A stretch of DNA of 64,000 nucleotides from Candidatus Shapirobacteria bacterium (lineage in GTDB: Bacteria; Patescibacteriota; Microgenomatia; UBA12405). Within the stretch, counting starts at the first letter, position 1; every line of letters begins with the position of its first letter. The stretch is taken from positions 1,064 through 65,063 of the forward strand of contig JBAZTV010000003.1 of NCBI GenBank assembly GCA_041661765.1, written 5' to 3'. Below the pieces are notes generated by a model that made no database searches, was not told where the DNA came from, and worked only from the letters and a program-made list of their open reading frames with translations. This document shows positions 3,394 to 51,249 of this stretch, piece by piece. The translations under genes were made by a program, and so were the position numbers.

Positions 3394-3798
3394 TTACGGA
3401 TTAGTCACAGTATAATCACCAGTTTCTTCTAAAGTTGCAGTAATAGTATAAGTATAACCCGAATGGGTATAATCATAATCTTGATTAGTTTTCGGATCCT
3501 TAGGCAAATTTTGAAGATAACTAGGAACTAAAGATGACGAAAGCGCCGGATAAGAAGTCCCCACATTTTGTCTATACAATTCCAACGCTATTCTTATTTT
3601 TTCCAAATCAGCCATTCTTCTATTATCCCTAGCTTTTTTGCTGGTTCCACTATAACTAACCATTCCTACTACAGTTAATACTGCAATTATCGTTACCGTC
3701 ACAATCAACTCAATCAAAGTAAAGCCTGAATTACCTTCCTTTTTAAGGGAGGTCCTTGAACGAAGTGAAAGGGGTGGGTTTGTTCCTTGATTTTTCAT
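3394..3798 (-). CDS. Pilin/pseudopilin (GspG-like) with an elongated 25-aa leader peptide that is encoded by an inserted G-rich repeat element
   Basis: Leader ...PPLSLRSRTSLKKEGNSG|FTLIELIV; KARDNRR..DL motif typical of GspG/PilA N-domains. Confidence 0.65.
   Translation of the reverse strand: MKNQGTNPPLSLRSRTSLKKEGNSGFTLIELIVTVTIIAVLTVVGMVSYSGTSKKARDNRRMADLEKIRIALELYRQNVGTSYPALSSSLVPSYLQNLPKDPKTNQDYDYTHSGYTYTITATLEETGDYTVTNP
3745..3781 (+). repeat. G-rich hairpin element copy R1 (AAGGGAGGT-ccttgaacgaagtgaaagg-GGTGGGTTT)
   Basis: Shares AAGGGAGG...GGGTTT flanks and an internal hairpin with 8 other copies; lies in the prepilin leader coding region. Confidence 0.7.
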
Positions 3799-3808
3799 AT
3801 CTTTTAAA

Positions 3809-3845
3809 CCCTCCTTTCCTCAAGGGAGGGTAGGGTGGGTTTTTA
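3809..3845 (+). repeat. Degenerate G-rich element copy R2 (CCCTCC-loop-GGGAGGG tagGGTGGGTTTTT). On the minus strand it reads as a stem-loop plus T-run, a terminator-like structure downstream of pilin 3843..4292
   Basis: Stem CCCTCC/GGGAGG followed by GGGTTTTT. Confidence 0.5.
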
Positions 3846-4292
3846 TTGTTGATTTTTTACACAAAAATAACCTTTTGGAGACACGTTAAATTGACAACTA
3901 ACATTAGCATTAGAATTAGCACTATTTTCCATTGCAACACAAATACAATATCCACTTGCGTTACAATCAGTAGCACAACTATAATCTTCACCTTTAGGAC
4001 CACTTGGATAACTCTCTAAAACAACAACACCACTAGCCGGAGACCACTGATCCCCAGAACTATAAGTAGTTGGGTAAGAATACGCATTTTGAGAATAATA
4101 TTGTTCAGCTGCTGTCTGTATTAATTTTAAATCTTCTATTCTTCTTACATCTCTAGTTTTCTTCTGAGCTCCAGAATAAGCCACCGACACTATCGCCGTC
4201 AAAATTCCAATAATCGAAATCACTATCAACAACTCAAATAATGAAAACCCGATTTGCCAATATATATAATCTCTTTTTTTTTCAATACTCAT
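3843..4292 (-). CDS. Type IV pilin-like protein (leader ...YWQIG|FSLFELLIV), Cys-rich C-terminal domain
   Basis: Prepilin motif plus KKTRDVRR..DL N-domain signature. Confidence 0.6.
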   Translation of the reverse strand: MSIEKKRDYIYWQIGFSLFELLIVISIIGILTAIVSVAYSGAQKKTRDVRRIEDLKLIQTAAEQYYSQNAYSYPTTYSSGDQWSPASGVVVLESYPSGPKGEDYSCATDCNASGYCICVAMENSANSNANVSCQFNVSPKGYFCVKNQQ

Positions 4293-4849
4293 TATAATTT
4301 AGTCTCGTCAAAACCTGAAGTAAGAGCAGAATTAGGACTAGAAATACCATAACAATAGGTTACACTATTAGACACAAAAGCAGATTTACATTGAGAATCA
4401 CTTTTATTTTCCAAATTAGCAAAAAGATAGAAGGTTTTATTATCAGTCTTATGTCTATAAGAATATATATAAGGGTCCACATTTTTTGGATCTTTTGGCA
4501 TTTCCGCCATATAAACAATTCCTCCAGGACCAGTCAAACCAACACTACTTCCCAAAAAAGCATCTGAATTTAAATCCGGCAAAACTCCATTATCATTGTA
4601 ATACATAATCAAAGCTTTTGACAACGCATCTAACTCAGTTTTTCTTTGAGTATCCCGAGCTTTCTTTTGAGCCCCAGAAAAGGCCACCGCTCCAATCATT
4701 GTCAAAATTCCAATAATCGAAATCACCACCAATAATTCTACTAAAGTAAAACCAAAATTAAATCCTCCTTTTTTAAGGGAGGTCTTTGAACGAAGTGAAA
4801 AGAGTGGTTTTGTTCTTTGATTTTTATTTTTCATATTTTTAATTTCCAC
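4292..4849 (-). CDS. Type IV pilin-like protein with a ~25-30 aa leader (alternative start at 4834) that contains a repeat-element-encoded segment KPLFSLRSKTSLKKGG before G|FTLVELL
   Basis: Prepilin motif; AQKKARDTQRK..L signature. Confidence 0.65.
   Translation of the reverse strand: MEIKNMKNKNQRTKPLFSLRSKTSLKKGGFNFGFTLVELLVVISIIGILTMIGAVAFSGAQKKARDTQRKTELDALSKALIMYYNDNGVLPDLNSDAFLGSSVGLTGPGGIVYMAEMPKDPKNVDPYIYSYRHKTDNKTFYLFANLENKSDSQCKSAFVSNSVTYCYGISSPNSALTSGFDETKL
4775..4811 (+). repeat. G-rich hairpin element copy R3 (AAGGGAGGT-ctttgaacgaagtgaaaaga-GTGGTTTT)
   Basis: Near-identical to R1, with a compensatory stem change (CCTT/AAGG becomes TCTTT/AAAGA). Confidence 0.7.
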
Positions 4850-5291
4850 AAACCATAAAAACCTTATCTTCTGTTACACCAACACCACATTTCACCTGAG
4901 AATCAGTATCATCACTTCCAGCCCCAGTCTCCAAAGCCGCTTTTAACCTAAAAGTATCACCACTAGAATCCATATAAGCATAACTATAACCAATATTTTC
5001 CATCGACGGCATATAAGTTTTACCAACTGATTCATTTAAACAAGTAGAGTTATAAACACCAACTTCATCATCACAACCCGTAGTCGGATAAGACTGATTA
5101 TCATTATAATACATTCTCAACGCAGATTTAATCGAATTCAAATCCTGAATTTTTTGAGCATCTTTAGCTCTCTCTCTCATCCCCATAAAATTCACCACCA
5201 AAACAGCTGTCAAAATTCCAATAATCGAAATCACCACCAATAATTCAATTAAACTAAAACCACTATTATTTTGTTGTTTCATTTGTTTCAT
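4839..5291 (-). CDS. Type IV pilin-like protein (start MKQMKQQNNSG|FSLIELLVV); the ORF-track N-terminal extension is probably not translated
   Basis: Prepilin motif at internal Met 85 of the listed ORF; ERAKDAQK..DL signature. Confidence 0.6.
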   Translation of the reverse strand: MKQMKQQNNSGFSLIELLVVISIIGILTAVLVVNFMGMRERAKDAQKIQDLNSIKSALRMYYNDNQSYPTTGCDDEVGVYNSTCLNESVGKTYMPSMENIGYSYAYMDSSGDTFRLKAALETGAGSDDTDSQVKCGVGVTEDKVFMVCGN

Positions 5292-5718
5292 TAACGTTAT
5301 TAATATCAGTATAACAATATTTAATTCCATTGCACAAGTATTTATTTTCTTTACAATCAGTGTCATTTTTATTTTCAAATTCAGCAGACATTTTAAAAGA
5401 AACACCATCACTTCCAATCTCATAACAATATTCTTTATCTCCATGTTTTTCCCTTGGCACTGAATTTGCATATGTATAACCATTATCAACAAAACTCTTT
5501 CCCCAAAGACTATTAACCAATTCATTACTCGGCAACTTTCCATAATCAGTAAAATAAAGTTTAATTACTTTAGAAAATTCATTCAAATCAGATCTCCTTT
5601 GTAAATCTCTAGATTTTGCCTGGGCTAAATCAAATTGTTTACAAGTTATAAAAGACAAAATTCCAACCACTGTCACTATTATTAATAATTCCAAACAAGT
5701 CTTTTTTTTCATAAACAC
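5266..5718 (-). CDS. Pilin-like protein with an atypical N-terminus (MFMKKKTCLELLIIVTVVG; no canonical Gly-Phe cleavage site)
   Basis: Hydrophobic N-helix plus AKSRDLQRRSDL N-domain signature. Confidence 0.45.
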   Translation of the reverse strand: MFMKKKTCLELLIIVTVVGILSFITCKQFDLAQAKSRDLQRRSDLNEFSKVIKLYFTDYGKLPSNELVNSLWGKSFVDNGYTYANSVPREKHGDKEYCYEIGSDGVSFKMSAEFENKNDTDCKENKYLCNGIKYCYTDINNVNETNETTK

Positions 5719-6407
5719 TCATCACCACAACAACTAACTTGACATTTACTTAAACAATCACCGCTATCAATTGACACATAAAAACAATTATCACCACTAC
5801 AACCACCACTTCTACTTTCACAACTACCACCCACACTACCTACTAAACAGGAACTAGTATCACAATCTGGATTTATATAATTCTCATACCATACAATGTT
5901 TGGACTCGACACCCCATAGTTAACTTTATTTTTAGTTATACCAGTTAAAAGTATATCTGTTCGTATATACCAATCTTTCGGAATGTCATCATCTTCCTTG
6001 TTTTCTAAATTAGTCATCACCCTAAATTTATTTGTTTCCGCAATTACCATATAAGGATTTCCGTCTGGATCACACGGCCACGGAGACAAATATTGGGAAA
6101 AATTAATACTATTACTATGACAATTTGATTTTATATTCCAATTACTAATATCTTGCGGATAATATCCCTTATCATTAAAATATTCCTCAAAAGCCTGTTT
6201 AATTCTATTTAGATCTTTTTTCCTCTGCGAATCTCTACTCTTATTCACCGGATTAATCATCACAAAAGCTCCAATCATTATTATCGCTATCATAATAACA
6301 ATTGTCATTACTATTAAAATTTCCACCAAAGTAAAACCTAAATTACGTCGCCCTATCAAGGGAGATGTCCCGACTTGTCGGGACAGAGGGTTTATTCCTT
6401 TTTTCAT
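5709..6407 (-). CDS. Type IV pilin-like protein; true start is probably the ATG at 6407 (MKKGINPLSRQVGTSPLIGRRNLG|FTLVEIL). The 24-aa leader is encoded by repeat copy R4; very Cys-rich C-terminus
   Basis: Prepilin motif; start overlaps the pilD stop (TAATG); leader region coincides with the repeat element. Confidence 0.6.
   Translation of the reverse strand: MKKGINPLSRQVGTSPLIGRRNLGFTLVEILIVMTIVIMIAIIMIGAFVMINPVNKSRDSQRKKDLNRIKQAFEEYFNDKGYYPQDISNWNIKSNCHSNSINFSQYLSPWPCDPDGNPYMVIAETNKFRVMTNLENKEDDDIPKDWYIRTDILLTGITKNKVNYGVSSPNIVWYENYINPDCDTSSCLVGSVGGSCESRSGGCSGDNCFYVSIDSGDCLSKCQVSCCGDECL
6358..6393 (+). repeat. G-rich hairpin element copy R4 (AAGGGAGA-TGTCCCGACttGTCGGGACA-GAGGGTTTA)
   Basis: Perfect 9-bp hairpin between the conserved G-rich flanks. 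Confidence 0.75.
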
Positions 6408-7237
6408 TACTGTATTAATTTTACAATTAAATCTCCCCACCACCAAGCCACCAAAATTCCTAAAATCATAAACGGACCAAAAGGGACTTGTGTTTTCCTA
6501 TCCGCTTTTTTAAAAATCATCAATATTAACCCCAAAATTGCCCCAACAACAAAAGCCACATAAAAGGCTATTATCGTTTTAGGATATCCTAAAAACAATC
6601 CCATAAACAAAGCCAACTTAACATCTCCCATCCCCATTCCACTACCTTTAGTTATCAAATTTAAAATTAATAAAAACCCACTAGCCACCAACGCTGATAG
6701 TATTTGTTGTAAGGGCAGACCGATGTGTCTGCCCCACATATCGCCCAGCAGAAAAACAATTGCACATCCAATTAAAATTACTGTCGAAAAATCCGGCAAA
6801 ATCATATATTTTAAATCAAATACCGCACTAAAAACCAAGAAAACAATAATCAAAAAACCTAAAATTAACTGTAGTAGAGACGTTGCATGCAACGTCTCTA
6901 CGAAATTAAACCTAAAAACTAAAAAAAACAATACAAATAAAATCCCCATAACTAATTCCACAACAGGGTAGGAGAGTGGTAATTTTTTATAGCAACATTT
7001 TGTTTTACCTTTTAAAATCAACCAAGAAATCACTGGCACATTTTCATACCAATTCAATTGTCTACCACAATAATCACAAAACGATCTTTTCTCATTTATG
7101 TAGGGGCTAACCCTTGTGTCCGCCCTTTTAATTTTTAAAATTTTATAATTTACAGCCGTCCTATAAACCAACATATTCACAAAACTCCCAAAACATAAAC
7201 CCAAAACAAAAATAATAATTCCAATTAACATTTCCAT
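6407..7237 (-). CDS. pilD: Prepilin peptidase (A24 family, PilD-like) with an in-frame REP-like palindrome insertion
   Basis: N-terminal CDYCGRQ...C..KCC zinc-binding motif, multiple TM helices, GMGDVKL motif; insertion encodes VETLHATSLLQ. Confidence 0.8.
   Translation of the reverse strand: MEMLIGIIIFVLGLCFGSFVNMLVYRTAVNYKILKIKRADTRVSPYINEKRSFCDYCGRQLNWYENVPVISWLILKGKTKCCYKKLPLSYPVVELVMGILFVLFFLVFRFNFVETLHATSLLQLILGFLIIVFLVFSAVFDLKYMILPDFSTVILIGCAIVFLLGDMWGRHIGLPLQQILSALVASGFLLILNLITKGSGMGMGDVKLALFMGLFLGYPKTIIAFYVAFVVGAILGLILMIFKKADRKTQVPFGPFMILGILVAWWWGDLIVKLIQ
6874..6901 (+). repeat. REP-like palindrome GTAGAGACG-ttgcatgcaa-CGTCTCTAC, in frame inside pilD
   Basis: Perfect 9-bp stem with terminal GTAG/CTAC; same family as 15872, 33299, 41917, 41995, 63605. 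Confidence 0.8.
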
Positions 7238-7276
7238 ATCTCATTCTAACAAAAATTAAAGGCTTCTCCCTTTTTT

Positions 7277-7315
7277 AAGGGGAGATGTCCCGATTTATCG
7301 GGACAGAGAGGTTTT
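7277..7315 (+). repeat. G-rich hairpin element copy R5 (AAGGGGAGA-TGTCCCGATttATCGGGACA-GAGAGGTTTT), intergenic between pilD and pilA
   Basis: Same as R4 but with a compensatory C/G to T/A change that keeps the stem. Confidence 0.75.
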
Positions 7316-14083: not shown

Positions 14084-16135
14084 ATGATCAATCTTGATTC
14101 TCCCGAATTAAAAAATATTTCTCCCGAAAAATTGGGTGAACTTCTAATCGAAGCCAAAAAAGCTTACTACACCGACAGCAAGCCCATCATGGATGATCAC
14201 ACCTACGATATTCTCGAAGACATATTGCGAAAAATTAATCCTTATCATCGGATTTTTACTAAAATCGGCAGTTCCCATTTCAATAGCGGTTTTGACAAAA
14301 AAAAGCATTCCATGCCCATGGGCTCCCAAAACAAAGTCAATAAAATCGACGATCTCGTTCACTATTTTGAATTAAAGAAAGTTTTACCCCTCCTTGTCAA
14401 AGGAGGGGATAGGGGTGGATTGGTCGTTCAACCAAAATGTGACGGCATTTCCTTAGAAATTGAATATAAAAATGGTAAATTAGTTGATGCTATCACTCGC
14501 GGCGACGGCGAAATAGGAGATGTTATCACCCAAAATGTTGTCAAAATGAAAAATTTTGTCCAAGAATTCAAGGACAATTTTTCCGGCTCAGTCCGTTGCG
14601 AAATCGTAATGCTCGAAAAAGATTTTCAAAAATTAAATGAAATAATAAAAAACCGCCCTATCTCGGCCACAGGCCGATCCGCCTCTGGCGGAAAGGGAGG
14701 TGTCCCCGCCACAGCGGGGACGGAGGGTTTCTACAGTAACTCTCGCAATGCCGTCTCTGGTATCTCACAGCGCCTTGACGGCAAATTTTCTGAACTCTGT
14801 AGTCTTTATGCTGTCGACATTTATAGCCTCCCTGTCAAGGGAGGTGCCCAAAGGGCGGAGGGTTTCAAAACCGAACAAGAAAAAATTGATTTTCTAAAAC
14901 ATCATGGCTTCACTACTGTTGAAGATCTTCATTGTCAAAATTTTGACCAAATCGAAAAAATCTACCAAGAATTTTTAATTAAAAAAAGAAAAAATTATCC
15001 TTTTGAAATCGACGGTCTCGTCATTAAAATTAACGATACTGAAATACAACATCGTCTAGGTTCTAAAAATAATCGTCCCAAAGGTCAAGTGGCCTACAAA
15101 TTTCCATCTCGCTCCAGTCAAACGAGAATTATTAATATCAATTGGCAAGTTGGTCCAATGGGAACAATTACTCCTGTCGCCGAAGTCGATCCCATCGAAA
15201 TTTCCGGCGCCATCATTACCTTTGCCTCGCTGGCCAATTACGATTTAATCAAAGAAAAAAATATTAATATTAATGACATCGTTGAAATTCAAAGAAGAGG
15301 AGATGTTATCCCTCACATTGAAAACGTCATTACCAAAATTAATCCCGGCCACATCGTCGCTCCCACAGTTTGTCCTTCTTGTGGCACCAAATTAATCATC
15401 GATAATAAATTTTTGCGCTGTCCTAATATTAAAAATTGTCCTACTCAAATTCTCGGTTCTCTTAAATTATTTTGTAGCACTTTAGAAATTAAAGGTATCT
15501 CCGAAAAAACCATCGACAAACTTTATAAAGAAAAATTAATTCGCCTTCCGGGTGATTTTTATGACCTAAAAGTTTCCTATTTTGAAAAACTTTTTGGCCT
15601 TGGCCACAAATCGGGGACCAATATCATTAAAGAAATCCAAAATAAAAGAAAACTATCATTAAAACAAATTTTTGACGCCGCAATTATTCCCAACTTTAGT
15701 TCTCAACGAATTGTTCAACTGATTAATGCTGGTTTCGATACTCCTGAAAAAATTTTAAATATCACCATCGATCAGCTCGAAGCACTTCCCGGAATTCAAA
15801 TTACTTTGGCTAAAAAAATCTATCAAGGCATCCAAGACCGCCGCGATTTTATTATATCCATTCTTGCTCATGTAGAGACGCCCCGCCGGGACGTCTCTAC
15901 ATCAAACAAACTAAACAACCTATCTTTTGCCATCACCGGCGCTCTTAATAAACCCAGAAAAGAAATTGAAGATCAAATCATTTCTCTCGGTGGTCAATTA
16001 GTTTCCTCTATTTCTAAAAATACTAACTATTTGATTACTAACGAAACCGAATCCAATTCCAGTAAATTTTTAAACGCTAAAAAATTTGGAACCAAAATAA
16101 TTTCTGAATCTGATTTTGAATTATTAGCAGTCTAG
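14084..16135 (+). CDS. ligA: NAD-dependent DNA ligase LigA carrying three in-frame repeat-element insertions
   Basis: KxDG adenylation motif (KCDGISLE), Zn finger C..C...C..C, HhH and BRCT regions; insertions SATGRSASGGKGGVPATAGTEGF, PVKGGAQRAEGF and HVETPRRDVSTS. Confidence 0.85.
   Translation: MINLDSPELKNISPEKLGELLIEAKKAYYTDSKPIMDDHTYDILEDILRKINPYHRIFTKIGSSHFNSGFDKKKHSMPMGSQNKVNKIDDLVHYFELKKVLPLLVKGGDRGGLVVQPKCDGISLEIEYKNGKLVDAITRGDGEIGDVITQNVVKMKNFVQEFKDNFSGSVRCEIVMLEKDFQKLNEIIKNRPISATGRSASGGKGGVPATAGTEGFYSNSRNAVSGISQRLDGKFSELCSLYAVDIYSLPVKGGAQRAEGFKTEQEKIDFLKHHGFTTVEDLHCQNFDQIEKIYQEFLIKKRKNYPFEIDGLVIKINDTEIQHRLGSKNNRPKGQVAYKFPSRSSQTRIININWQVGPMGTITPVAEVDPIEISGAIITFASLANYDLIKEKNININDIVEIQRRGDVIPHIENVITKINPGHIVAPTVCPSCGTKLIIDNKFLRCPNIKNCPTQILGSLKLFCSTLEIKGISEKTIDKLYKEKLIRLPGDFYDLKVSYFEKLFGLGHKSGTNIIKEIQNKRKLSLKQIFDAAIIPNFSSQRIVQLINAGFDTPEKILNITIDQLEALPGIQITLAKKIYQGIQDRRDFIISILAHVETPRRDVSTSNKLNNLSFAITGALNKPRKEIEDQIISLGGQLVSSISKNTNYLITNETESNSSKFLNAKKFGTKIISESDFELLAV
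14661..14730 (+). repeat. G-rich element copy R6, long form with two hairpins (CCGCCtctGGCGG and GTCCCCGC-caca-GCGGGGAC), in frame in ligA
   Basis: Its 5' extension is homologous to R9 with a compensatory stem change. Confidence 0.75.
14827..14865 (+). repeat. G-rich element copy R7 (CCTCCCTgtcaAGGGAGGTGCCCaaaGGGCGGAGGGTTT), in frame in ligA
   Basis: Near-identical to R8. Confidence 0.75.
15872..15900 (+). repeat. REP-like palindrome GTAGAGACG-ccccgccggga-CGTCTCTAC, in frame in ligA
   Basis: 9-bp stem with GTAG/CTAC termini. Confidence 0.8.
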
Positions 16136-16264: not shown

Positions 16265-16798
16265 ATGAAACTAATCGTCGGTCTCGGTAACCCAGATAAA
16301 AAATATCAAAACACTCGCCATAATTTAGGCCAAAAAATTATTATTGATTTTGTACGGGCGTGGCGTGACACGCCCTTTATAACCAAATCAAACCTCTCCG
16401 CTCAAATTTACGAAATCGGACAGGGGACTAATAAAACAATTTTTGCCATCCCCACTGAATACATGAACAATTCAGGAATCACCGTCCAAAAAATCTCTCA
16501 ATTTTATAAAATTTCTCCCTTAAATATTTATGTCATCCATGATGATCTTGATTTAGAGGTAGGAGATTATAAAGTTCAATTTGATCGTGGTCCAGCCGGC
16601 CACAATGGCATTAAGTCTATTATTGAAAACTTAGGTACCCAACAGTTTAATCGCATTAGAATCGGTATCGGCAAGTCTCAAAATAATATTCCCGTTGAAG
16701 ACTATGTCCTCCAGCCATTTTCCTCTGAAGAAAAAGATACAATCAATACTCTAACTCCTGAAATATTTGAAGAAATTAAAAATATTTTGGGCTCATAG
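16265..16798 (+). CDS. pth: Peptidyl-tRNA hydrolase
   Basis: N-terminal MKLIVGLGNP...Y...RHN signature. Confidence 0.85.
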   Translation: MKLIVGLGNPDKKYQNTRHNLGQKIIIDFVRAWRDTPFITKSNLSAQIYEIGQGTNKTIFAIPTEYMNNSGITVQKISQFYKISPLNIYVIHDDLDLEVGDYKVQFDRGPAGHNGIKSIIENLGTQQFNRIRIGIGKSQNNIPVEDYVLQPFSSEEKDTINTLTPEIFEEIKNILGS

Positions 16799-27963: not shown

Positions 27964-27976
27964 TTTTTTGCAATTT

Positions 27977-28007
27977 AAAAACCCTCCGAAATTTCGGAGG
28001 GTTTTTT
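27977..28007 (+). terminator. Rho-independent terminator AAAACCCTCCGAAAT/ATTTCGGAGGGTTTTTT
   Basis: Perfect 13-bp palindrome followed by a T-run, right after the stop of 26896..27963. Confidence 0.8.
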
Positions 28008-33541: not shown

Positions 33542-34480
33542 TTATTTATTACCACTATGAAATTTCTCATGAACTTCTCTTAATCTAGCATCTGTCACAT
33601 GGGTGTAAATTTGAGTCGTAGCAATATTTTTATGTCCCAAAAGTTCTTGGACTGATCTCAAATCCGCTCCAGATCGAAGCAGGTCAGTCGCCATTGAATG
33701 TCTTAAAGTATGAGGCGTCGCATCAACCGGTAAATTCGCCGTTTTTACATAATGCTTCACCAATCTTTGCACCGATCTAACCGTCAATCTAACTTTTTCT
33801 TCACTCGCTGGAATTTCATTTGGCCGCAAGACTCTACTAAACAGGGGTTTATATTTGTCCTCTCGACTCATTAAATATTTTGCGACATAATCAGCTGCTT
33901 GCCTAGAAATAAAAACCACTCTCGCTCGTCCACCTTTTCCAATCACTCCAAACTCTCTGGTTTTTAAATTAATTTGGTCACGATTCAAATGAACCAATTC
34001 CGAAACCCGCAATCCAGTTGAAAACAAAAGTTCTAAAATTGCTCTGTCTCTAAAACCATTTTTACTAGAGGGGATTGGCTGCACTAAAAGTCTCTCCATC
34101 TGTTGAGCATCTAAAAATTTTAATGAATGATCTTTAACTTTCGGCACATCCAATTTTTCTGGTTGAAGCACTTTGTAATCATTTTTAATCAACCATTTCA
34201 AAAATGACCTCAGGGCAATCACATAATAACCTTGCGTCACCAATTTCATTTCTCCCACAGTTCCCTTCTGTCTGGCCAAAAACAATCTAAACCTTCTCAC
34301 CATATCCGAAGTTATATCATTAATTGTATTTTTTTCATTTTCCTTTTTTCCTTCTGATAAAAACTTTGTCAAGACTTCTAAATAATGCTGATAATTTCTA
34401 ATCGTCAATCTTGAACAATTTTTTTCAATTTCCAGATGCTCTAAAAATCGCCTAATCAAAATATTCAAATCATTTTCCAT
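33542..34480 (-). CDS. Tyrosine site-specific recombinase (XerC/XerD family)
   Basis: C-terminal R..HxxR..Y catalytic signature (HTLRHSMAT...LGH...TQIYTHV). Confidence 0.8.
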   Translation of the reverse strand: MENDLNILIRRFLEHLEIEKNCSRLTIRNYQHYLEVLTKFLSEGKKENEKNTINDITSDMVRRFRLFLARQKGTVGEMKLVTQGYYVIALRSFLKWLIKNDYKVLQPEKLDVPKVKDHSLKFLDAQQMERLLVQPIPSSKNGFRDRAILELLFSTGLRVSELVHLNRDQINLKTREFGVIGKGGRARVVFISRQAADYVAKYLMSREDKYKPLFSRVLRPNEIPASEEKVRLTVRSVQRLVKHYVKTANLPVDATPHTLRHSMATDLLRSGADLRSVQELLGHKNIATTQIYTHVTDARLREVHEKFHSGNK

Positions 34481-35322
34481 AAACTATCTTATCATGATAC
34501 CAATTAAGAGGTAAAAGTAATCAGAAAATTTTTAATCTTCATTTCTAGGGGCTCTGGTGACGTCTTAGGTTCATTTTGCCTATCTTTAGGCACAATTATC
34601 AAAATCTCCTCTTTAAAATAGTACAGGGGAGTCAATCACCAAATTTTAAACCCAAAGACCATCTATAAAGCAGGCAAGTCAAATAGGGAATTTGTTTATT
34701 AATTAATTATTAAAAATAAATAAATAAAAGCATGATCCAAATAAAAGAAAAAATAAAAATTTTGAAAAAGACAAAAAACAGCACTCCCCCTACCTAACTC
34801 TTTAGTTAATGTCGCAAAAGATACATTGTGCGACATAGCATATTTAGCCACCTTCTGCTAGGAGATAGGAATAAAAACTCTTTTCCCTCTCTTAGTTATT
34901 TATTAATTAATAATTAATTCTCCATTATTAATTAATTGATAAATAACTCTTACTCCTCCCTCTTGGGCAGTCCTTTTTGATACATTCGGTAAAAAATAGG
35001 TTTTCCACATAGACTATATCACACTATATCACCTGCTCCGTGAAAACTATAGTATATTTCGTGAAAATATTATAGGATGTTTTATATTATAGGACTCCCC
35101 TCCGCCCTGCCCACCTGTTCTTAAAAAAAATTAAAAAACTATAAACTTTAAATTAAAATACCCGTTTTTTTAACCTAACTCTGGTTTTTTTATAGATTAA
35201 AAAAATAGTTCATTGCCTATCATCTACAATTTAAAAATTAATTCTAAACTCCCCTGTTTTAAGAACAAAAAACCATCAAATTATACCTATCTTTCCATTA
35301 AAAATAAATATAAAGTCGCTCT
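34481..35322. other. ~850-bp ORF-free AT-rich region with iteron-like direct repeats (ctatatcac x2, cgtgaaaaNta x2, tattatagg x2), inverted repeats (34897-34952; ATGTCGCA-N12-TGCGACAT at 34817-34844) and three CAGGGGAGT motifs; candidate replication origin, Xer/dif-like site or element boundary
   Basis: Read directly; none of the six-frame ORFs explains it (the one 79-aa ORF there has no support). Confidence 0.4.
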
Positions 35323-35384
35323 GTCTCAGCCAAAGGCTGATCGGCCTCTGGCCGAAAGGGAGGTGCCCGCATGGCGGAGGGTTT
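35323..35384 (+). repeat. G-rich element copy R9, long form (CGGCCtctGGCCG hairpin plus AAGGGAGGTGCCCgcatGGCGGAGGGTTTT), abutting the stop of the ABC exporter gene
   Basis: Homologous to R6 over ~60 nt. Confidence 0.75.
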
Positions 35385-37144
35385 TATTTTATAAACCCAC
35401 CCACTTGTATATTCCAAAGCCTTTTATAAACACCTTTTTCTTGTTTAATTAATTTTTCATGAATTCCTTCCTCAACAATCTTTTTATTATCTATAACTAC
35501 AATTCTATCCGCTTTTTTAATAGTAGATAATCTATGAGCAATTATAATCACCGTTTTATTTTTCATTAACGCATCCAATGATTCTTGTATAAATCTTTCT
35601 GATTCCGAATCTAAACTTGAAGTAGCCTCATCTAAAACCAATATTGGTGCGTTTCTTAAAATTGCCCTAGCAATAGCCACTCTTTGACGTTCACCACCAG
35701 AAAGCTTGATTCCTCTTTCCCCAACAAAAGTATCGTAACCAAAATGCAATTTACTTATAAATTCATCACAATGTGCCAATTTAGCCGCCCTAATTACTTC
35801 TTCATCAGTCGCATCAAACTTACCATATCGAATATTTTCCATCAAACTCCTGTGAAATAATATCGGATCTTGCGGCACTAAACTAATATTGTTTCTTAAA
35901 CTCTCTTGAGTAACCTGTGAAATATCCTGACCGTCAATCAATATTTTCCCTTTTTGTATTTCAAACATCCTTAATAATAATTTAGTTAGTGTCGTCTTTC
36001 CTGCACCAGATGTTCCTATCAATGCCACAGTTTCTTTTGCCTTAATTTCTAAACTAAAATCATCAATAATACTTTCGTCTTCTTCATAAGCAAAACCAAC
36101 ATTATTAAAATTTATTTTTCCAAACTTAACTTTCAAATCACTAGCATTTTTTGTATCAACAATTTCATGTGGAATATTCAAAATAACTGTCATCTCCTCA
36201 GCTTCAGCCAATTTTTCATATATCTTCATAATTATTTTACCAAAATCCCAAACCATCGACATCACAAATATAATATAAGTTTGTATTAATACAAAATCAC
36301 CAACAGTTATAACATCTCTACTCCAAAGTTTAATTGCAAAATAAAATATTCCTACTTCTAAAAACACCAGTAAAAGTGATTGTAAACCATAAAATCCTGA
36401 ACCTAACTCCCAAGCAAACACTCTCACTTTATGTAAATTATCTGCCAAATTAGAAAAACTATTGTTTTCCTTTTTATATCCGTTAAATAACTTTATATTA
36501 GCATTATTAGTTACCGTATCAGCCAAAAAACTACTTGTAGCCGTTTCTGCTTCACTTCTCTGAATATCAAATTTTAATTTATATTTAGTAAAAATCCAAT
36601 TAATTAATAAGAATAATATTATCCAAACCAATATTCCCAACCCCAAATAAATATTAATCTTAGCCAAAACAATAATAATAATTGATATTTTTATAAACGA
36701 TGGTAGTAACTGATAAAAAAATTGATCTGCTAGAACTTCAAAAGCACCAATAAAACTTTTAACTTTTTTAACAATAGAACCAGTAAAACTATTAGAAAAA
36801 TAAGCAAAAGAATGATAATGTAAATAAGAAAAGCATTCCTTGCTTAAATCTGTCATGATTTTTGACTCATAGAAATTTAAAATGAAGAATGCAACTCGCC
36901 AAAAAAACCACTTAAGTAATTTCAATACTGATATCACTAACAAAATCGAAAACAAACTTACGGTTAAAATATCTTTAGGCTGGTTTTCAGTTAAAACATT
37001 AAAAAAATTCTTAAAATATATAGGAATTATTGACTCTAATACTGAACCAGTAATAATTAAAAAACACAAACTAAAACTGAGCAATTTATAATTACCCATA
37101 TTCTTTAAATAATACTTAACTGTTTTTTTAGTGTTATCTTTCAT
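35384..37144 (-). CDS. ABC exporter, fused permease/ATPase (MsbA-like)
   Basis: 6-TM N-domain; Walker A GTSGAGKTT; LSGGERQRVAIARA; Walker B LVLDEATS. Confidence 0.85.
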   Translation of the reverse strand: MKDNTKKTVKYYLKNMGNYKLLSFSLCFLIITGSVLESIIPIYFKNFFNVLTENQPKDILTVSLFSILLVISVLKLLKWFFWRVAFFILNFYESKIMTDLSKECFSYLHYHSFAYFSNSFTGSIVKKVKSFIGAFEVLADQFFYQLLPSFIKISIIIIVLAKINIYLGLGILVWIILFLLINWIFTKYKLKFDIQRSEAETATSSFLADTVTNNANIKLFNGYKKENNSFSNLADNLHKVRVFAWELGSGFYGLQSLLLVFLEVGIFYFAIKLWSRDVITVGDFVLIQTYIIFVMSMVWDFGKIIMKIYEKLAEAEEMTVILNIPHEIVDTKNASDLKVKFGKINFNNVGFAYEEDESIIDDFSLEIKAKETVALIGTSGAGKTTLTKLLLRMFEIQKGKILIDGQDISQVTQESLRNNISLVPQDPILFHRSLMENIRYGKFDATDEEVIRAAKLAHCDEFISKLHFGYDTFVGERGIKLSGGERQRVAIARAILRNAPILVLDEATSSLDSESERFIQESLDALMKNKTVIIIAHRLSTIKKADRIVVIDNKKIVEEGIHEKLIKQEKGVYKRLWNIQVGGFIK

Positions 37145-46262: not shown

Positions 46263-48356
46263 ATGAATTTAAATAAAATTTTTTATCCAAAATCAATTGC
46301 CATAATTGGAGCATCAACTCGAGAAGGAACTGTGGGTAATGATATTGTTAAGAATTTAGTTAATCAAAAATTTACAGGTAAAATTTATCCGATTAATCCA
46401 AAAACAGATACTCTTTATAATTTAGCGTGTTATCCAAGCGTAGGTCATATTGATGATGAAATTGATTTGGCGATCGTAGTAGTGCCAGCGATAATAGTAC
46501 CTGAAATGATGCAGGAAATTGCTAATAAAAATATTAAAGGAGTAATCATCATTTCAGCTGGTTTTAAAGAAATGGGGAGAATTGATTTAGAAAATAAAGT
46601 TAAAGAAATTTGTTTTAAAAATGATATTACTTTAATTGGTCCTAATTGTTTAGGAGTAATTAATCCAGAAATAAAAATGAATTCATCTTTTGCAATGTCC
46701 ATGCCAAATACGGGGAATTTAGCATTTTTGTCACAAAGCGGAGCCTTATGTACTGCAGTTTTAGATTGTGCTCAATCTTTAGGGATTGGTTTTTCAAAAT
46801 TTATTAGTGTAGGCAACAAAGCCTGCGTTGATGAGGTTGATTTTTTGGAATATTTTAGTGAAGACCAAAATACAAAAGTGATTGCCATTTATGCAGAACA
46901 ATTAACAAGAGCACAAGAATTAATTAAATCAGTTTTAAAATTAGCTAAAGAAAAACAAAAACCAATAATTTTAGTTAAAGCGGGTAAGACTAATGATGGA
47001 GCCAATGCTTCGGCTTCTCATACTGGAGCTTTAGGTGGTAGTGATGCAGCATATGAGGCCTTATTTAAACAAAGTGGCATTATCAGAGCTGAAAGTGTAT
47101 CTGAATTCTTTGATTTTATTCAAGTATTTACTAATAACCCCCTACCCCAAGGAAATAGGGTGGCAATTGTGACTAACGCTGGAGGTCCGGGAGTTTTAGC
47201 TACTGATGAGGCAATATTAAATAATTTAGTTTTGGTAAAATTAAGTGAAGAAACAAAAAATAATTTAAAGCAAAATTTACCGGAAGCAGCTAATGTAAAT
47301 AATCCAATAGACGTATTAGGTGATGCAAAGGCTGATAGATACAGAGCGGCAATGGAAACAGTAATTAAAGATGAAAAAGTGGATAGTGTAGTAGTAATTT
47401 TAACACCTCAATCAACGACTGAAATTGAAGCTACGGCTCAAATGTTGATCGAAACCAAAAAACAAAATAATAAACCCATTGTGGCTTGTTTTATGGGAGA
47501 AACAACTGTAATAAAAGCAGTGGAGATGATGAGAACAAATGGAATTAGTGTAATTAGTTTTCCAGAACAAGCAATAAAATCTTTAGCAGCACTAACTAAA
47601 TTTGCTGAAATTACTAGAGAAAATGAAATTGAACAATTTGAAAAAATAGATGTTGATAAACAAAAGGTAATAGAAATTTTTAATGAAGCACGTAGTCAAA
47701 ATATAACTAAATTTCCAGAAGCTCAAGCCTTGAAAATTTTAGAAGCGTATAAATTCCCTCTTTTAAAGAATAAAGTGGCTACCAATGCCAATGAAGCTAG
47801 TGAAATTGCTAAAGATTTTGGAACTAATTTGGCTATGAAAATAGTTTCTCAAGATATTTTACATAAAAGTGATATAGGTGGAGTGATACTGGATATTAAA
47901 GTAGAAGAGGCCGGAATTAAGTTTACTGAAATGGTAGAAAAAATTAAAACTAAATTACCAAATGCCAAAATTGAAGGTGTACTTTTAATGGAAATGGCGC
48001 CAAAAAATGGAGTTGAATTAATTTTAGGAGCAAAAAAAGACCCCGCTTTAGGACAAACGATAATGGTTGGTTTGGGGGGAATTTATGTGGAAGTGTTTAA
48101 AGATATAACTTTTGGAATTGTACCGATTAATAAAACTGATGCTAAAAAAATGATCGATAGTATTAAAGTTAAAAAATTATTTGAGGGAGTTCGAGGTGGA
48201 GTTGCGCTAGATGTTGAAGTATTAATCGAAACTTTAGGCCGATTATCCAAATTACTTTCAGATTTTCCAGAAATTGAAGAATTAGATATTAATCCCCTGT
48301 TGATATTACCACAAGGACAGGGAGTTAAAGTTTTGGACGCCAGAATTTTAATATGA
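46263..48356 (+). CDS. ADP-forming acetyl-CoA synthetase / NDP-forming acyl-CoA synthetase (alpha-beta fusion)
   Basis: N-terminal CoA-binding domain (IAIIGAS...G), succinyl-CoA-synthetase-like flavodoxin domain, C-terminal ATP-grasp; 697 aa. Confidence 0.65.
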   Translation: MNLNKIFYPKSIAIIGASTREGTVGNDIVKNLVNQKFTGKIYPINPKTDTLYNLACYPSVGHIDDEIDLAIVVVPAIIVPEMMQEIANKNIKGVIIISAGFKEMGRIDLENKVKEICFKNDITLIGPNCLGVINPEIKMNSSFAMSMPNTGNLAFLSQSGALCTAVLDCAQSLGIGFSKFISVGNKACVDEVDFLEYFSEDQNTKVIAIYAEQLTRAQELIKSVLKLAKEKQKPIILVKAGKTNDGANASASHTGALGGSDAAYEALFKQSGIIRAESVSEFFDFIQVFTNNPLPQGNRVAIVTNAGGPGVLATDEAILNNLVLVKLSEETKNNLKQNLPEAANVNNPIDVLGDAKADRYRAAMETVIKDEKVDSVVVILTPQSTTEIEATAQMLIETKKQNNKPIVACFMGETTVIKAVEMMRTNGISVISFPEQAIKSLAALTKFAEITRENEIEQFEKIDVDKQKVIEIFNEARSQNITKFPEAQALKILEAYKFPLLKNKVATNANEASEIAKDFGTNLAMKIVSQDILHKSDIGGVILDIKVEEAGIKFTEMVEKIKTKLPNAKIEGVLLMEMAPKNGVELILGAKKDPALGQTIMVGLGGIYVEVFKDITFGIVPINKTDAKKMIDSIKVKKLFEGVRGGVALDVEVLIETLGRLSKLLSDFPEIEELDINPLLILPQGQGVKVLDARILI

Positions 48357-49180
48357 TAAAGTACCATATGGTCGAAAAAAATACTTCAACTCCAGAAAAT
48401 TTAAATTCACTCAAAATTGAAACCATTAAATCAGGTAACAACGAAGTCTCCGTCTGTCCACAACGCGGTGGAATAATTACCTCTTTAAAATTAAATGGCA
48501 CTGAAATACTCTTTTTAAATCCAGAAAATTTTAATGACGTCAAAAATAATGTCCGAGGTGGTATCCCCATTCTTTTTCCCAACGCCGGTCCAATTACCAC
48601 CACCGATTCAGAATTTTCCAATTTAAAACAACACGGTTTTGCTAGAAATTCTTCAAAATGGAATTTTCAACAAACCACCAACGGATTCATTGAAAATTTA
48701 TCTTCAAACGAAGAAACATTAAAAGTCTATCCTTGTAAATTTAAACTTTCCATTATTGGAAAATTTGAGAAAGACGATTCTTTTACTCTCACTCAAGAAG
48801 TAAAAAATGAAGATAATAAAGAAATACCAGTTTCTTTCGGACTTCATCCTTATTTCAATGTTCCTACAAATCAAAAAAATAACATTGAATTTAATTTTCC
48901 AGGTGGTGAAATTATTAAAAATGAAACTGATAAATGGTCAAACGGTGGCACCACTTCCATTGATAATCCTCAAAAATTAGAAACTAAAATTCCAACAATT
49001 GGAACAATTACTCTTAACACCTCACCAGAATATCAACGAATTTGGACTTGGTCCATAAAAGATGAAAATTTTATCTGTATTGAACCAGTCATGCGCAATG
49101 TAAATGGTCTTGTTGAAAATCCAGAAAAAATCCAGCCCCAAGCCACTTTTTCCGCCAGTGTCAATTTTAAATTAAAATAA
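48353..49180 (+). CDS. Aldose 1-epimerase-family protein (mutarotase-like)
   Basis: HGFARN...W and LHPYFN motifs. Confidence 0.55.
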   Translation: MIKYHMVEKNTSTPENLNSLKIETIKSGNNEVSVCPQRGGIITSLKLNGTEILFLNPENFNDVKNNVRGGIPILFPNAGPITTTDSEFSNLKQHGFARNSSKWNFQQTTNGFIENLSSNEETLKVYPCKFKLSIIGKFEKDDSFTLTQEVKNEDNKEIPVSFGLHPYFNVPTNQKNNIEFNFPGGEIIKNETDKWSNGGTTSIDNPQKLETKIPTIGTITLNTSPEYQRIWTWSIKDENFICIEPVMRNVNGLVENPEKIQPQATFSASVNFKLK

Positions 49181-49281
49181 TATTTAAATCCCATAAACCC
49201 AACACAATTTGTTGATAAATCTTTTTTTTATTGTATAATCACGTGCTAGACTTTTTAAGTCATTTAGCACATTAAATTTTT

Positions 49282-49749
49282 GTGAAAGGTGGAATCCCGG
49301 TGAGTTTAAAACAACACCACGACGCCCTTTTAGATGGTCTACATCCAATCTTCCCAGAATCCATTAAAATAATAAATCAAATTTGCGGCAACAGAGAAGT
49401 AATACGTGGAATCGAATTCGAAAAAGTTAGTCAAACAATTGATGGATTTCTAAAAATTATACGACCCACCACTAGTGATGATTACTGTTGGTTTTGGGGA
49501 TTAGTTTTTAATATCCAAAATGAAGAAGTTATTATCACTTTTCCATGGGCTCAAGATTGGGATAAAAAAGACGGAATCCAACTTGATCGATCAATAGCCG
49601 TCTATATTAAAAAACCTTGGTTTCAGATTCTAGTTTTTAAATTCAAAAATAAACTTCATATTAAACAGTCAACCATCATTCTGACTAACGAAAATAAAAT
49701 TAACCAACTCATAAGCGAATTGGCTATTGGATTTCAAAAACCTAAATAA
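49282..49749 (+). CDS. Hypothetical protein (GTG start)
   Basis: 155-aa ORF. Confidence 0.35.
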   Translation: MKGGIPVSLKQHHDALLDGLHPIFPESIKIINQICGNREVIRGIEFEKVSQTIDGFLKIIRPTTSDDYCWFWGLVFNIQNEEVIITFPWAQDWDKKDGIQLDRSIAVYIKKPWFQILVFKFKNKLHIKQSTIILTNENKINQLISELAIGFQKPK

Positions 49750-49948
49750 AACTACCTATCAACAATCAATTTAAATCCCTCAAAATTTAATCATCACTAT
49801 TATTTAGTGACGACAATAATTTAATAGAGGGGCTTTTTTTTAAAAAACTTACTATTAATTATTTGACTTATTAAAAATTTTGAGTCACAAACGAAAATAT
49901 TTTGTCTTAAAACACGATTCCGATTTATTGGGATAAATAGTTATTACA

Positions 49949-51208
49949 ATGTTAAAATCAATTATGAATCAAATTAAACCACAAACATTAAAAGGCTTTC
50001 GTGATTTCCTTCCAAAGGAAATGGCAGTTCGTAATTATGTCAAAAATACTTTAATTGAAATTTTTGAAAAAAATGGCTTTTTACCTCTCGAAACTCCAGC
50101 ACTAGAATATGCCTCTGTTTTAAAAGGTAAATATAGTAATGAAACTGATGATAAATTAGGCTATTTTTTTAAAGACAATGGTGGTCGTGATATTGGTCTT
50201 CGTTACGATTTAACTGTCCCCACTGCCAAAGTTTTAGCTATCTATAATAATGAAATTCAGCTCCCATTTAAGCGATATCAAATACAACCAGTCTGGCGTG
50301 CCGAAAACACTCAACGAGGTCGTTACCGAGAATTTGTCCAATGTGATATAGATATTTTTGGTACCACCTCCGCCATCGCCGACGCCGAAATTATTTCCAT
50401 TATCTATATCGGCACCCAAAAATTAAATTTTAAAAACGCCATTATTAAAATCAACAGCCGGCCAATCCTTTTCGACATTTTGACTAAAAGCAACATCCAA
50501 AATAATCAAAATTCAATACTTCAATCAATCGATAAGTTGGACAAAATTGGTGAAGATGGAGTAAAAAAAGAACTCATTGACAAAGGTCTATCTAATACTC
50601 AAATTGATGACGTTTTTAAATACATCAAACTGGCTCAGCCAGACGACAATTTAAAACAAGTTTTTAACAATTTAAAAGCCTTAAACATCCCCGATAATGC
50701 CTATATTTTTGACCCAACTCTTGTCCGTGGTTGTGATTACTACACTGGCACTATTTTTGAAGTCTGTGTCACTGAGCCAAAAATGGGAGCCATCGGTGGC
50801 GGTGGTCGTTATGATAATTTAGTTTCCACTCTCGGTGGACCTCAAATTCCCGCCGTCGGTTTTGCTTTTGGTTTTGAAAGAGTAGTTGATGTTATTCAAG
50901 AATTAAATCTCCTTCCCCAAATCAATCGATCCAAAATTAAAATTTTAATTGCTAATTTTGGCCCAGAAACTGAAACTAATATTTTAAATTTAATTAGTAA
51001 GCTTCGTGATCAAAATATTCCCTTCATTATTTATCCCGATGCCGACAAGCTTGGCAAACAAATAAAATATGCCGATAATATGAGTATTCCTTATCTCGCT
51101 ATTATCGGTACTGACGAAGCCAAAAATAACCAAATTACTTTAAAAAATCTCACTACAACCGAACAAAAATCGGTTAGTTTTGATGAATTAGTTAATAAAT
51201 TAAAATAA
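49949..51208 (+). CDS. hisS: Histidine--tRNA ligase
   Basis: Class II motifs; RYQIQPVWRAENTQRGRYREF HisRS signature; anticodon-binding C-domain. Confidence 0.85.
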   Translation: MLKSIMNQIKPQTLKGFRDFLPKEMAVRNYVKNTLIEIFEKNGFLPLETPALEYASVLKGKYSNETDDKLGYFFKDNGGRDIGLRYDLTVPTAKVLAIYNNEIQLPFKRYQIQPVWRAENTQRGRYREFVQCDIDIFGTTSAIADAEIISIIYIGTQKLNFKNAIIKINSRPILFDILTKSNIQNNQNSILQSIDKLDKIGEDGVKKELIDKGLSNTQIDDVFKYIKLAQPDDNLKQVFNNLKALNIPDNAYIFDPTLVRGCDYYTGTIFEVCVTEPKMGAIGGGGRYDNLVSTLGGPQIPAVGFAFGFERVVDVIQELNLLPQINRSKIKILIANFGPETETNILNLISKLRDQNIPFIIYPDADKLGKQIKYADNMSIPYLAIIGTDEAKNNQITLKNLTTTEQKSVSFDELVNKLK

Positions 51209-51209
51209 A

Positions 51210-51249
51210 GCCGCCCTGTCAAGGGAGGTGCCCGAAGGGCGGAGGGTTT
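51210..51249 (+). repeat. G-rich element copy R8 (CCGCCCTgtcaAGGGAGGTGCCCgaaGGGCGGAGGGTTT) between hisS and the HAD gene; its GGAGGG tail sits 5 nt before the HAD ATG, so it may act as an RBS
   Basis: Near-identical to R7. Confidence 0.75.

Follow-up and report, generated by a model that had tools for sequence, protein, structure and literature searches.

Hairpin-looped purine-motif triplex repeats in a Candidatus Shapirobacteria contig, probable solo derivatives of a selfish unit with a DUF559 gene

A 64,000-nucleotide stretch of the Candidatus Shapirobacteria contig JBAZTV010000003.1 (positions 1,064 to 65,063; hereafter the window, numbered from its first letter) was found to carry 11 copies of a short GC-rich repeat, all on the plus strand. 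These repeats are of the class II intrastrand triplex type, a known kind of motif, here with new arms and with a hairpin in the second loop, and we consider it probable (about 0.6) that they are solo derivatives of a selfish unit that is bounded by such purine-motif triplex elements and carries a DUF559 nuclease gene. The original prediction had described nine copies (R1 to R9), each a variable perfect hairpin between purine-rich flanks; all nine were recovered at their places and on the plus strand, and the conspicuous GC-rich islands it had pointed out were borne out, the window being about 31% GC with the repeat copies among its few GC-rich islands. That description, however, overlooked an upstream pyrimidine arm complementary to AAGGGAGG, and the element is a three-arm motif instead. 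The two copies added here (14387-14420 and 59152-59182) have different arm sequences and no central hairpin.

The arm order consists of a 5′ pyrimidine arm (CCTCCCT), a short loop, the purine arm AAGGGAGG, a variable GC hairpin and the tail GGAGGGTT (Table 1), with the pyrimidine arm (CCTCCCT, CCTTCCTT or the variant CCGCCCT) located 3-4 nt upstream of AAGGGAGG in every copy. The 5′ arm is the Watson-Crick complement of the purine arm, and the 3′ tail is the mirror image of the purine arm, not a repeat or a complement of it: G faces G, and A faces either A or T. This three-arm rule is kept over many arm sequences. Mirror pairs are formed by AAGGGAGG and GGAGGGTT, by AAGGGAGG and GGTGGGTT in R1 and R2, by AAGGGAGA and AGAGGGTT in R4, where the same G-to-A change occurs in both purine arm and tail, and by AAGGAGGGG/GGGGTGGAT and AAGAGGGA/AGGGAGAT in the copies at 14387-14420 and 59152-59182, respectively; in R4 and these two added copies the changes are matched across all arms. 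An antiparallel purine-motif triple helix (G*G-C, A*A-T, T*A-T) obeys just such a rule, combining a Watson-Crick pyrimidine partner with a mirror symmetry that tolerates A to A or T, and the triplex architecture of the repeats is well supported.

Table 1. Copies of the triplex repeat in the window, in the order of arms, hairpin and tail (ORF, open reading frame; CPR, candidate phyla radiation)
Copy	Position	Strand	Arms, hairpin and tail	Location and remarks
R1	3734..3780	+	CCTTCCTT / AAGGGAGG / tail GGTGGGTT (T over A); central insert TCCTTGAACGAAGTGAAAGG, weak pairing only	antisense within leader-peptide codons of prepilin-like ORF 3394-3798(-)
R2	3809..3841	+	hairpin-less triplex motif CCCTCCTT / AAGGGAGGG / GGGTGGGTT; second loop 2 nt	intergenic; complement is the Shine-Dalgarno sequence of prepilin-like ORF 3394-3798(-)
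R3	4764..4811	+	degenerate R1 paralogue; decayed tail GAGTGGTTTT	antisense within leader codons of prepilin-like ORF 4292-4849(-)
R4	6349..6392	+	CGCCCT / AAGGGAGA / hairpin GTCCCGACTTGTCGGGAC / tail AGAGGGTT	leader of prepilin ORF 5709-6446(-)
R5	7265..7313	+	TCTCCCTT / AAGGGGAGA / hairpin GTCCCGATTTATCGGGAC / imperfect tail AGAGAGGTT	intergenic
additional copy	14387..14420	+	CCCCTCCTT / AAGGAGGGG / GGGGTGGAT, 9/9 mirror	in frame in ligA, peptide LPLLVKGGDRGG
R6	14653..14729	+	CCGCCCT / AAGGGAGG / hairpin GTCCCCGCCACAGCGGGGAC / GGAGGGTT; loop 1 holds nested 30-nt double hairpin (14664-14691)	in frame in ligA
R7	14827..14864	+	canonical CCTCCCT-gtc-AAGGGAGG-tG CCC AAA GGG Cg-GAGGGTT	in frame in ligA (SLPVKGGAQRAEGF)
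inverted truncated copy	35093..35113	-	CCCCTCCGCCCTGCCCACCTG, complement of tail, hairpin and purine-arm start
R9	35317..35383	+	decayed pyrimidine arm, nested double hairpin (35327-35354), AAGGGAGG, short hairpin, GGAGGGTT	intergenic, directly 3′ of ABC-transporter ORF 35384-37144(-)
R8	51211..51248	+	canonical CPR variant CCGCCCT-gtc-AAGGGAGG-tGCCCGAAGGGCg-GAGGGTT	intergenic; tail GGAGGG 5 nt ahead of ATG (51252) of HAD hydrolase gene, probably its ribosome-binding site
additional copy	59152..59182	+	hairpin-less TCCCTCTT-gtca-AAGAGGGA-ttt-AGGGAGAT, 8/8 mirror	intergenic between minus-strand ORFs

A strict scan for an 8-nt purine arm with its upstream complement and downstream mirror, at most 1 mismatch being allowed in all, gave 5 sites on the plus strand of the window and 1 weak site on the minus strand, and none in 100 block shuffles, which argues that the three-arm pattern is not due to chance. 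A search of the window with the motif AAGGGAGGTG at up to 1 mismatch gave 7 matches, all on the plus strand. In about 1 Mb of retrieved loci (denoted by L numbers), a perfect 8/8 mirror tail was located within 45 nt in 114 of 310 perfect 8-bp pyrimidine/purine hairpins, compared with 7 in the direct-repeat control, and the arms of 35 of these 114 were unrelated to the pattern used for fetching (e.g., AAAGAGGG/GGGAGTTT, AGGAGAGG/GGTGAGGT and AAGGGAGA/AGAGGGTT). The collection-wide genome pattern had left the pyrimidine arm unspecified, and this arm was nearly always present among the matches listed, which came from Ruminococcus and other Clostridia, Flavobacteriaceae, Gastranaerophilales, Saprospirales, Patescibacteria and others. 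The metagenome pattern, containing the loop of the candidate phyla radiation (CPR) type, CCCTGTCAAGGGAGGTG, had left the tail unspecified; it yielded 90 true elements with 58 different hairpins, and the tail CGGAGGGTT was present in 83 of the 90. These counts exclude matches such as L126, L132, L134, L139 and L155, which carry a recurrent TCTCCCTGTCAAGGGAGGTGATAGCATGACTG; this sequence recurs in contigs of about 38-41% GC (L155 being labelled human gut), lacks a tail and resembles an ordinary ribosome-binding site followed by a start codon. Counting all sources, the block order of pyrimidine, purine and reverse-Hoogsteen (G/A/T) arms was observed in 11/11 window copies and, among the matches listed, in about 220 copies elsewhere.

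Folding as DNA yielded stem 1 and the central hairpin for R4 to R8 (z scores of -2.1 to -5.6) with a nearest-neighbour model, which does not score triplexes, and from the arm symmetry we infer that the hairpin-bearing variant would fold as a triplex as well. The stems which the original prediction had presented as compensatory sister pairs were all read correctly, and those of R4 and R5 (GTCCCGAC..GTCGGGAC versus GTCCCGAT..ATCGGGAC) stand as described. For R6 and R9, in contrast, the stems CCGCC..GGCGG and CGGCC..GGCCG belong to the nested 30-nt double-hairpin insert in loop 1 and not to the central hairpin, and for R1 and R3, CCTT..AAGG and TCTTT..AAAGA are weak hairpins in paralogous pilin-leader copies. 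The perfect hairpin attributed to every copy is thus weak in R1 and R3 (4-5 bp with an 11-nt loop, z about -0.6 and -0.9) and absent in R2. It was also noticed that the 30-nt module, CGGCC-aca-GGCCG atc CCGCC-tct-GGCGG, lies in loop 1 of R6, of R9 and of a metagenomic relative (L112, about 2440-2475) and is not present in the orthologous LigA elements of L117 and L118; it looks like a separate insert targeting the GTC/AAGGG loop. An alternative outer stem, formed by 5′ AAAGCCTCC with GGAGGGTTT, was considered and rejected because the 5′ AAA does not covary with TTT (e.g., in L128), suggesting that the flank is merely AT-rich.

Across the copies, 149 distinct central hairpins or inserts were collected, mostly with perfect stems. 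Stems of at least 3 bp were present in 140 of the 149, closed by a C-G pair in 100 of the 140; among the triloops, 33 of 60 were GNA (24 of them GAA), whereas only 6 of 48 tetraloops were GNRA and none of the 48 was UNCG. C-GNA-G triloops are classic, very stable DNA mini-hairpins. The dominance of DNA-type loops, combined with a triplex rule that has been described for DNA and not RNA (purine-motif triplexes form in DNA, not in RNA; PMC4666352), favours single-stranded DNA over RNA as the acting form. Likewise, the copies of the CPR set ran sense to neighbouring genes as often as antisense (32:33), which speaks against RNA as the primary level of function. The claim that secondary structure is under selection, at the RNA or single-stranded DNA level, can therefore be kept for structure, which is maintained in the 149 hairpins and in an orthologous pair of copies that differ by a compensatory change (GAT..ATC versus GAC..GTC), with single-stranded DNA favoured over RNA.

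The same arm order characterizes the class II intrastrand triplex motifs, to which the BoxC/PIT/TM_ECO family belongs (Holder et al. 2015, PMC4666352; for BoxC and PIT elements, Hoyne et al. 2000, as cited in PMC4666352). TM_ECO, with the TM_ECO/BoxC consensus 5′-CCCTCNCCC N3-6 GGGNGAGGG N3 GGGNGAGGG, adopts a very stable triplex fold when single-stranded, according to circular dichroism (CD) and nuclear magnetic resonance (NMR), which excluded a quadruplex (PMC4666352). The repeats described here share with this family the strand order, the C-G*G and T-A*A/T triplets, a G/C-rich composition, and an occurrence in multiple dispersed copies that are variable among relatives and sometimes form inverted pairs. 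Stems of at least 6-8 nt with no more than 1 mismatch (C-G*G, T-A*A/T) were found in R1, R2, R7 and the two added copies; stem 1 of R4, R6 and R8 contains a G.A mismatch, and R3, R5 and R9 are more degenerate. The hairpin-less copies R2, 14387-14420 and 59152-59182 fit the published class II definition directly and are the sole ones with loops within the 1-6 nt of the ITxF definition, which is a limit of the search and not a physical requirement; loop 2 is a hairpin of 11-20 nt in R4 to R9, and loop 1 of R6 and R9 contains the 30-nt insert.

Several differences from TM_ECO were noted: 1) the arms are CCTCCCT/AAGGGAGG/GGAGGGTT here and CCCTCNCCC/GGGNGAGGG/GGGNGAGGG in TM_ECO, no window copy fitting the TM_ECO/BoxC consensus and copies close to it occurring in L087, in L103 and next to E. 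coli ycjD, 2) the second loop is a covarying GC hairpin of 10-35 nt here and 3 nt in TM_ECO, and because it exceeds the 1-6 nt limit of ITxF the elements go unseen by loop-limited searches, 3) the hosts are CPR bacteria, Clostridia, Flavobacteriaceae, Gastranaerophilales and others, whereas TM_ECO was described from 262 proteobacterial genomes, and 4) the copies can lie within coding sequence, are strand-biased in CPR and are linked to a DUF559 nuclease gene, whereas TM_ECO in E. coli is always intergenic, without strand bias and without any function or mobility gene found (PMC4666352). In Rfam, the window gave only 3 tRNAs at the gathering threshold, and 8 element-bearing loci gave no match on the element at E<=1.

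Other short repeats resemble the element in part. Rickettsia palindromic elements (RPEs) are likewise short structured repeats which, in a reduced genome, insert in frame into unrelated protein-coding genes, where permissive sites let them be translated as additional peptide segments (PMC10969869). What is shared is this in-frame behaviour; RPEs are about 150 bp long, are restricted to Rickettsia and have neither a triplex architecture nor an associated nuclease gene. The REP/REPIN-RAYT systems also combine short, GC-rich, structured repeats acting as single-stranded DNA, in many solo or paired copies, with a dedicated nuclease gene flanked by repeats, but here the partner is a Vsr-like DUF559 protein of the PD-(D/E)XK type instead of an HUH Y1 enzyme, and the repeat is a triplex with a hairpin instead of a GTAG-headed hairpin; the GTAG head is not present in the element, and the checked ORFs flanked by or adjacent to elements are DUF559 (PF04480). 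Vsr-like free-standing homing endonuclease genes (PDB 3R3P, 'mobile intron protein') are similar in that a small nuclease gene acts as a selfish insert, whereas the DUF559 unit involves no intron or intein and, unlike classical homing endonuclease genes, has structured inverted ends. Integron attC sites, IS200/IS605 ends and group II introns were considered and rejected, as no matching core sites or enzymes were found.

The link to DUF559 was observed in several settings. A DUF559 ORF adjoins an element in four Flavobacteriaceae loci (L014, L039, L053 and L093), and in a Peribacteria locus (L102, 449-2506) a complete DUF559 domain with its flanking elements interrupts, in frame, the C-terminal domain of a Mur ligase ORF, the Pfam order being Mur_ligase_M, a partial Mur_ligase_C and then DUF559. 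In six CPR contigs (L124, L142, L152, L174, L185 and L220), two opposed copies about 440 nt apart enclose a DUF559 gene; each unit comprises a reverse-complemented left element, a leader of about 50 nt and an ORF of 135-142 codons, the last 15 or so of which are the right element. Four DUF559 homologs (48-57% identity) sampled by protein, without regard to the element, all had flanking triplex motifs (4/4) and lay in different gene neighbourhoods. The arms vary from one DUF559 unit to another (AAGGGGGA, AAGGGGAG(A), AAGGGGG, AGGGAGG). From this recurrent and co-varying flanking, it is reasonable to suppose that the repeats are solo derivatives of a DUF559-bounded selfish unit, which DUF559 would mobilise. 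The homolog P0132, annotated as Candidatus Shapirobacteria, has the C-terminus KASLSREVPKGRRV, which fits an R7-like element, and its gene and the window ligA are likely on the same contig. The DUF559 gene of E. coli K-12, ycjD, is overlapped at its 3′ end by a degenerate motif and followed by a full BoxC some 170 nt downstream. Among structures, DUF559 matched the structural-genomics entry PDB 3HRL (9e-19) and, weakly, the 3R3P nuclease (E=0.047); YcjD-like proteins are Vsr-like PD-(D/E)XK nucleases (PMC1189080). The association of DUF559 with these elements appears not to have been reported previously: among the papers that could be searched, none was found linking DUF559/YcjD with intrastrand triplex motifs, Holder et al. 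being silent on ycjD. A literature search by sequence strings gave nothing relevant.

Some further observations concern these units. At the ycjD locus (L233, NC_000913 1351040-1351830), a segment of about 40 nt from the end of ycjD (3′ end, GAGACGGTGCTGGAGAATATTC..GAACCG) occurs a second time downstream of the gene, between the degenerate triplex motif and the full BoxC, which suggests a past rearrangement. The element upstream of DUF559 (in L124, L142, L152, L174 and L220) usually contains a conserved, poorly paired insert, GGCGAGTGAAAYGAGAC, and not a perfect hairpin; since R1 and R3 carry a related insert, GAACGAAGTGA, they may derive from such left-end copies. The weak inverted remnant noted by the original prediction is present as a truncated inverted copy at 35093-35113, and with R9, 200 nt away, it may represent a decayed inverted-pair unit; similarity of the intervening sequence to DUF559 was not significant and was carried mostly by the element-encoded tail.

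Six of the 11 window copies lie inside ORFs and in frame, three in prepilin leader peptides and three in loops of LigA. The LigA protein of the window is 100% identical to one from Candidatus Shapirobacteria (CPR). Relative to solved LigA structures, R6 is an insertion of about 21 residues, and alignment of 120 LigA homologs revealed that all three sites vary widely in length and are filled or empty among these homologs and three syntenic loci. At the site of 14387-14420, the commonest segment has 10 residues (97/120 homologs) and the window 17, while the commonest lengths at the R6 and R7 sites are 8 residues (72/120) and 11 residues (71/120), respectively; short sequences at the R6 site are mostly like 'KLNQI SEEK YSNSRN' and filled ones like 'IKSLPVKGGGPATAGTEGF', and R7 is unique to the source genome among the 120. 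DNA alignment with the three syntenic relatives resolved R6 into a simple element plus the nested 30-nt double hairpin. R4 is a clean in-frame insertion of about 54 nt that is absent in three syntenic relatives; it lengthens the prepilin leader from MNKRN/GFTLVE to MKKGI-NPLSRQVGTSPLIGRR-NLGFTLVE, i.e., from 5 residues in the relatives to about 23. L117 and L118 have R5 and L116 lacks it, and it is the L118 ortholog that shows the compensatory stem change mentioned above. In other phyla, elements lie in frame in IlvD, a radical-SAM-like protein, a pilin leader, a Mur ligase and a giant Saccharibacteria protein, and 55 of the 80 copies of the CPR set are within stop-free frames of at least 150 codons. 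Other repeat families also fill the same LigA loops in other lineages, including GTAG-type palindromes: perfect ones lie in frame in genes (window 15866-15903 and 16351-16378; site 3 of the L118 ligA), one example being GTAGAGACG..CGTCTCTAC, which encodes VETPRRDVST in LigA, and in other Shapirobacteria they occupy the LigA loops that hold triplex elements here (peptides such as TNVETPRGASLQ and CRDVLQNVST).

The plus strand of the window is C-rich throughout, GC skew being negative in every 2-kb bin, and all 11 copies have their G-rich strand on it. Among CPR metagenome copies with at least 2 kb of flank, 64 of 80 (p=6e-8), or 61 of 76 after removal of duplicates, had their G-rich strand on whichever strand is locally C-rich, and this held for genes co-oriented with the copy (sense, 27:5) and opposed to it (antisense, 24:9). 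The orientation bias suspected from the nine copies is thus real, and in CPR-type contigs it tracks GC skew and not gene direction. Assuming the usual G-rich leading strand, the triplex-forming strand would mostly be the leading-strand template, which is rarely single-stranded, and the bias would fit either counter-selection of folds that block replication or insertion by a strand-specific route.

Based on these observations, the following explanation is proposed. In single-stranded DNA, the 5′ pyrimidine arm would pair with the purine arm, and the G-rich tail would fold back antiparallel onto the latter (G*G-C, A*A-T, T*A-T), with the GC-rich mini-hairpin making the fold-back in place of the usual 3-nt second loop. 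The autonomous form would be a unit of about 0.5 kb, a gene for the Vsr-like PD-(D/E)XK protein DUF559 between two inverted elements, the right one encoding its C-terminus; such a form is seen in related genomes and probably exists elsewhere in the source genome. DUF559 may recognise or nick the folded or duplex element and so drive copying by a homing-like or single-stranded DNA route. The window copies would be solo, non-autonomous units that persist at places of low harm (intergenic spacers, cleaved prepilin leaders and LigA surface loops), where they are read through in frame, and the copies retained in CPR mostly have their triplex-forming strand on the C-rich one, where replication would stall less.

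Several points weigh against this explanation. We know of no single PD-(D/E)XK nuclease that serves as a transposase, and the nuclease activity and specificity of DUF559 are putative. Neither activity nor target duplication nor a recent transposition event was seen, and it was not possible to delimit a clean target-site duplication or the exact ends of an insertion, because the relatives are only about 80% identical and substitutions also separate filled and empty sites. No DUF559 gene or pseudogene was found in the 64-kb window. As for the fold, stem 1 is left with a G.A mismatch by the CPR variant CCGCCCT, the tails of several copies (R3, R5 and R9) are imperfect, and a partial Watson-Crick alternative exists (5′ CCTCC with the tail GGAGG), in which R8 folds in the nearest-neighbour model. 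Over all phyla, orientation relative to skew was unbiased (45:45), so the bias is specific to CPR. Furthermore, no stable triplex was detected in vivo in E. coli, and no function or mobility gene was found for TM_ECO (PMC4666352).

Four other explanations were weighed and are weaker. The copies might be cis-regulatory RNA elements, in which an arm like an anti-Shine-Dalgarno sequence (CCUCCC) sequesters and releases purine tracts like a Shine-Dalgarno sequence in the manner of a thermosensor or riboswitch; the resemblance of the arms to these two sequences (AAGGGAGGUG for the Shine-Dalgarno), the tail GGAGGG 5-9 nt before ATG in R8, L026, L052 and L062, and the pilin-gene Shine-Dalgarno sequence supplied by the complement of R2 speak for such control. 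It is nevertheless unlikely, and is rejected as the principal explanation on account of the equal sense and antisense counts, the intragenic location of most CPR copies and the A-to-T alternation in the tail, which breaks Watson-Crick pairing with the pyrimidine arm and fits a triplex; moreover, Flavobacteriaceae and other phyla carry the motif with arms unlike Shine-Dalgarno sequences, no Rfam family matches, and the loops are of the DNA type. Formation of G-quadruplexes (GGGAGG ... GGAGGG), as raised in the original prediction, is very improbable: there are four short G-tracts, and CD of such sequences can resemble that of a quadruplex (PMC4666352), but the conserved complementary pyrimidine arm would be unneeded by a quadruplex and would compete with it, the matched A/T positions and the AA/TT ends are left unexplained, and the 18 imino signals of TM_ECO in NMR are consistent with a triplex, not a quadruplex (PMC4666352).

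The two remaining explanations accept mobile or structured DNA in another form. In a system of REP-like palindromes or MITEs (transposable elements of the miniature inverted-repeat kind), only the hairpins would matter and the purine tracts would be a recognition sequence for a RAYT-like or other transposase; short, dispersed, GC-rich, structured copies whose presence varies among relatives are expected of it, and GTAG-type palindromes coexist in the source genome and fill the same LigA sites. We regard it as improbable, since mirror symmetry, neither inverted nor direct, is kept over many arm sequences and such covariation argues against a mere sequence-specific binding site; the hairpin-less R2, 14387-14420 and 59152-59182 retain the three arms, and the neighbouring ORFs checked included no transposase, the recurrent neighbour being DUF559. 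Alternatively, the repeats might be structural signals selected by the host (replication pause sites, recombination hot spots or nucleoid landmarks), with DUF559 as a resolving host factor, for which the orientation bias tied to GC skew and the association of TM_ECO with local genome variability in E. coli (PMC4666352) could be cited. This is rather unlikely as well: copies inserted into essential coding sequence where most relatives have an empty site resemble tolerated parasites and not signals, the compact inverted-end DUF559 unit occurs in different gene neighbourhoods, and the bias is not seen in other phyla.

If the repeats are solo derivatives of a triplex-ended DUF559 unit, a concrete candidate enzyme would be at hand for them, including the copy next to E. 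coli ycjD, and a possible role could be suggested for a large domain of unknown function. On a broader and more tentative view, to which we give slightly less than even odds, BoxC/PIT-type motifs, unexplained since the 1990s, would be the structured ends of widespread minimal selfish elements, in which DUF559 recognises the intrastrand triplex and mobilises the unit of about 0.5 kb and its solo derivatives, coding insertions included, in CPR, Bacteroidota, Bacillota, Melainabacteria and Proteobacteria. The hairpin-looped triplex architecture is present in many phyla, among them the ultra-small CPR genomes, where the element behaves like an RPE by adding peptides to LigA and lengthening prepilin leaders and where its orientation follows replication-associated skew. 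For annotation, such elements account for many lineage-specific indels in CPR proteins.

Finally, a few minor features were noticed. A Saprospirales locus (L034, about 2300-4000) contains six copies in the same orientation within a tandem array of units of about 200-440 bp, each unit also having a second pyrimidine/purine hairpin (TCCTTCTCTTGAAA..AGAAGGA). In the window, an unusually long (about 850 nt) AT-rich non-coding region at 34480-35316 contained no ORF of 80 or more residues and no Rfam match; it has inverted repeats made of A and T only, e.g., AGTTATTTATTAATTAATAATTAATT...ATTATTAATTAATTGATAAATAACT around 34895-34950. The words GGAGGG and CCCTCC appear again at 27975-28004 in AAAAACCCTCCGAAATTTCGGAGGGTTTTTT, a plain hairpin of the terminator type; it has no third arm and is not a member of the family.

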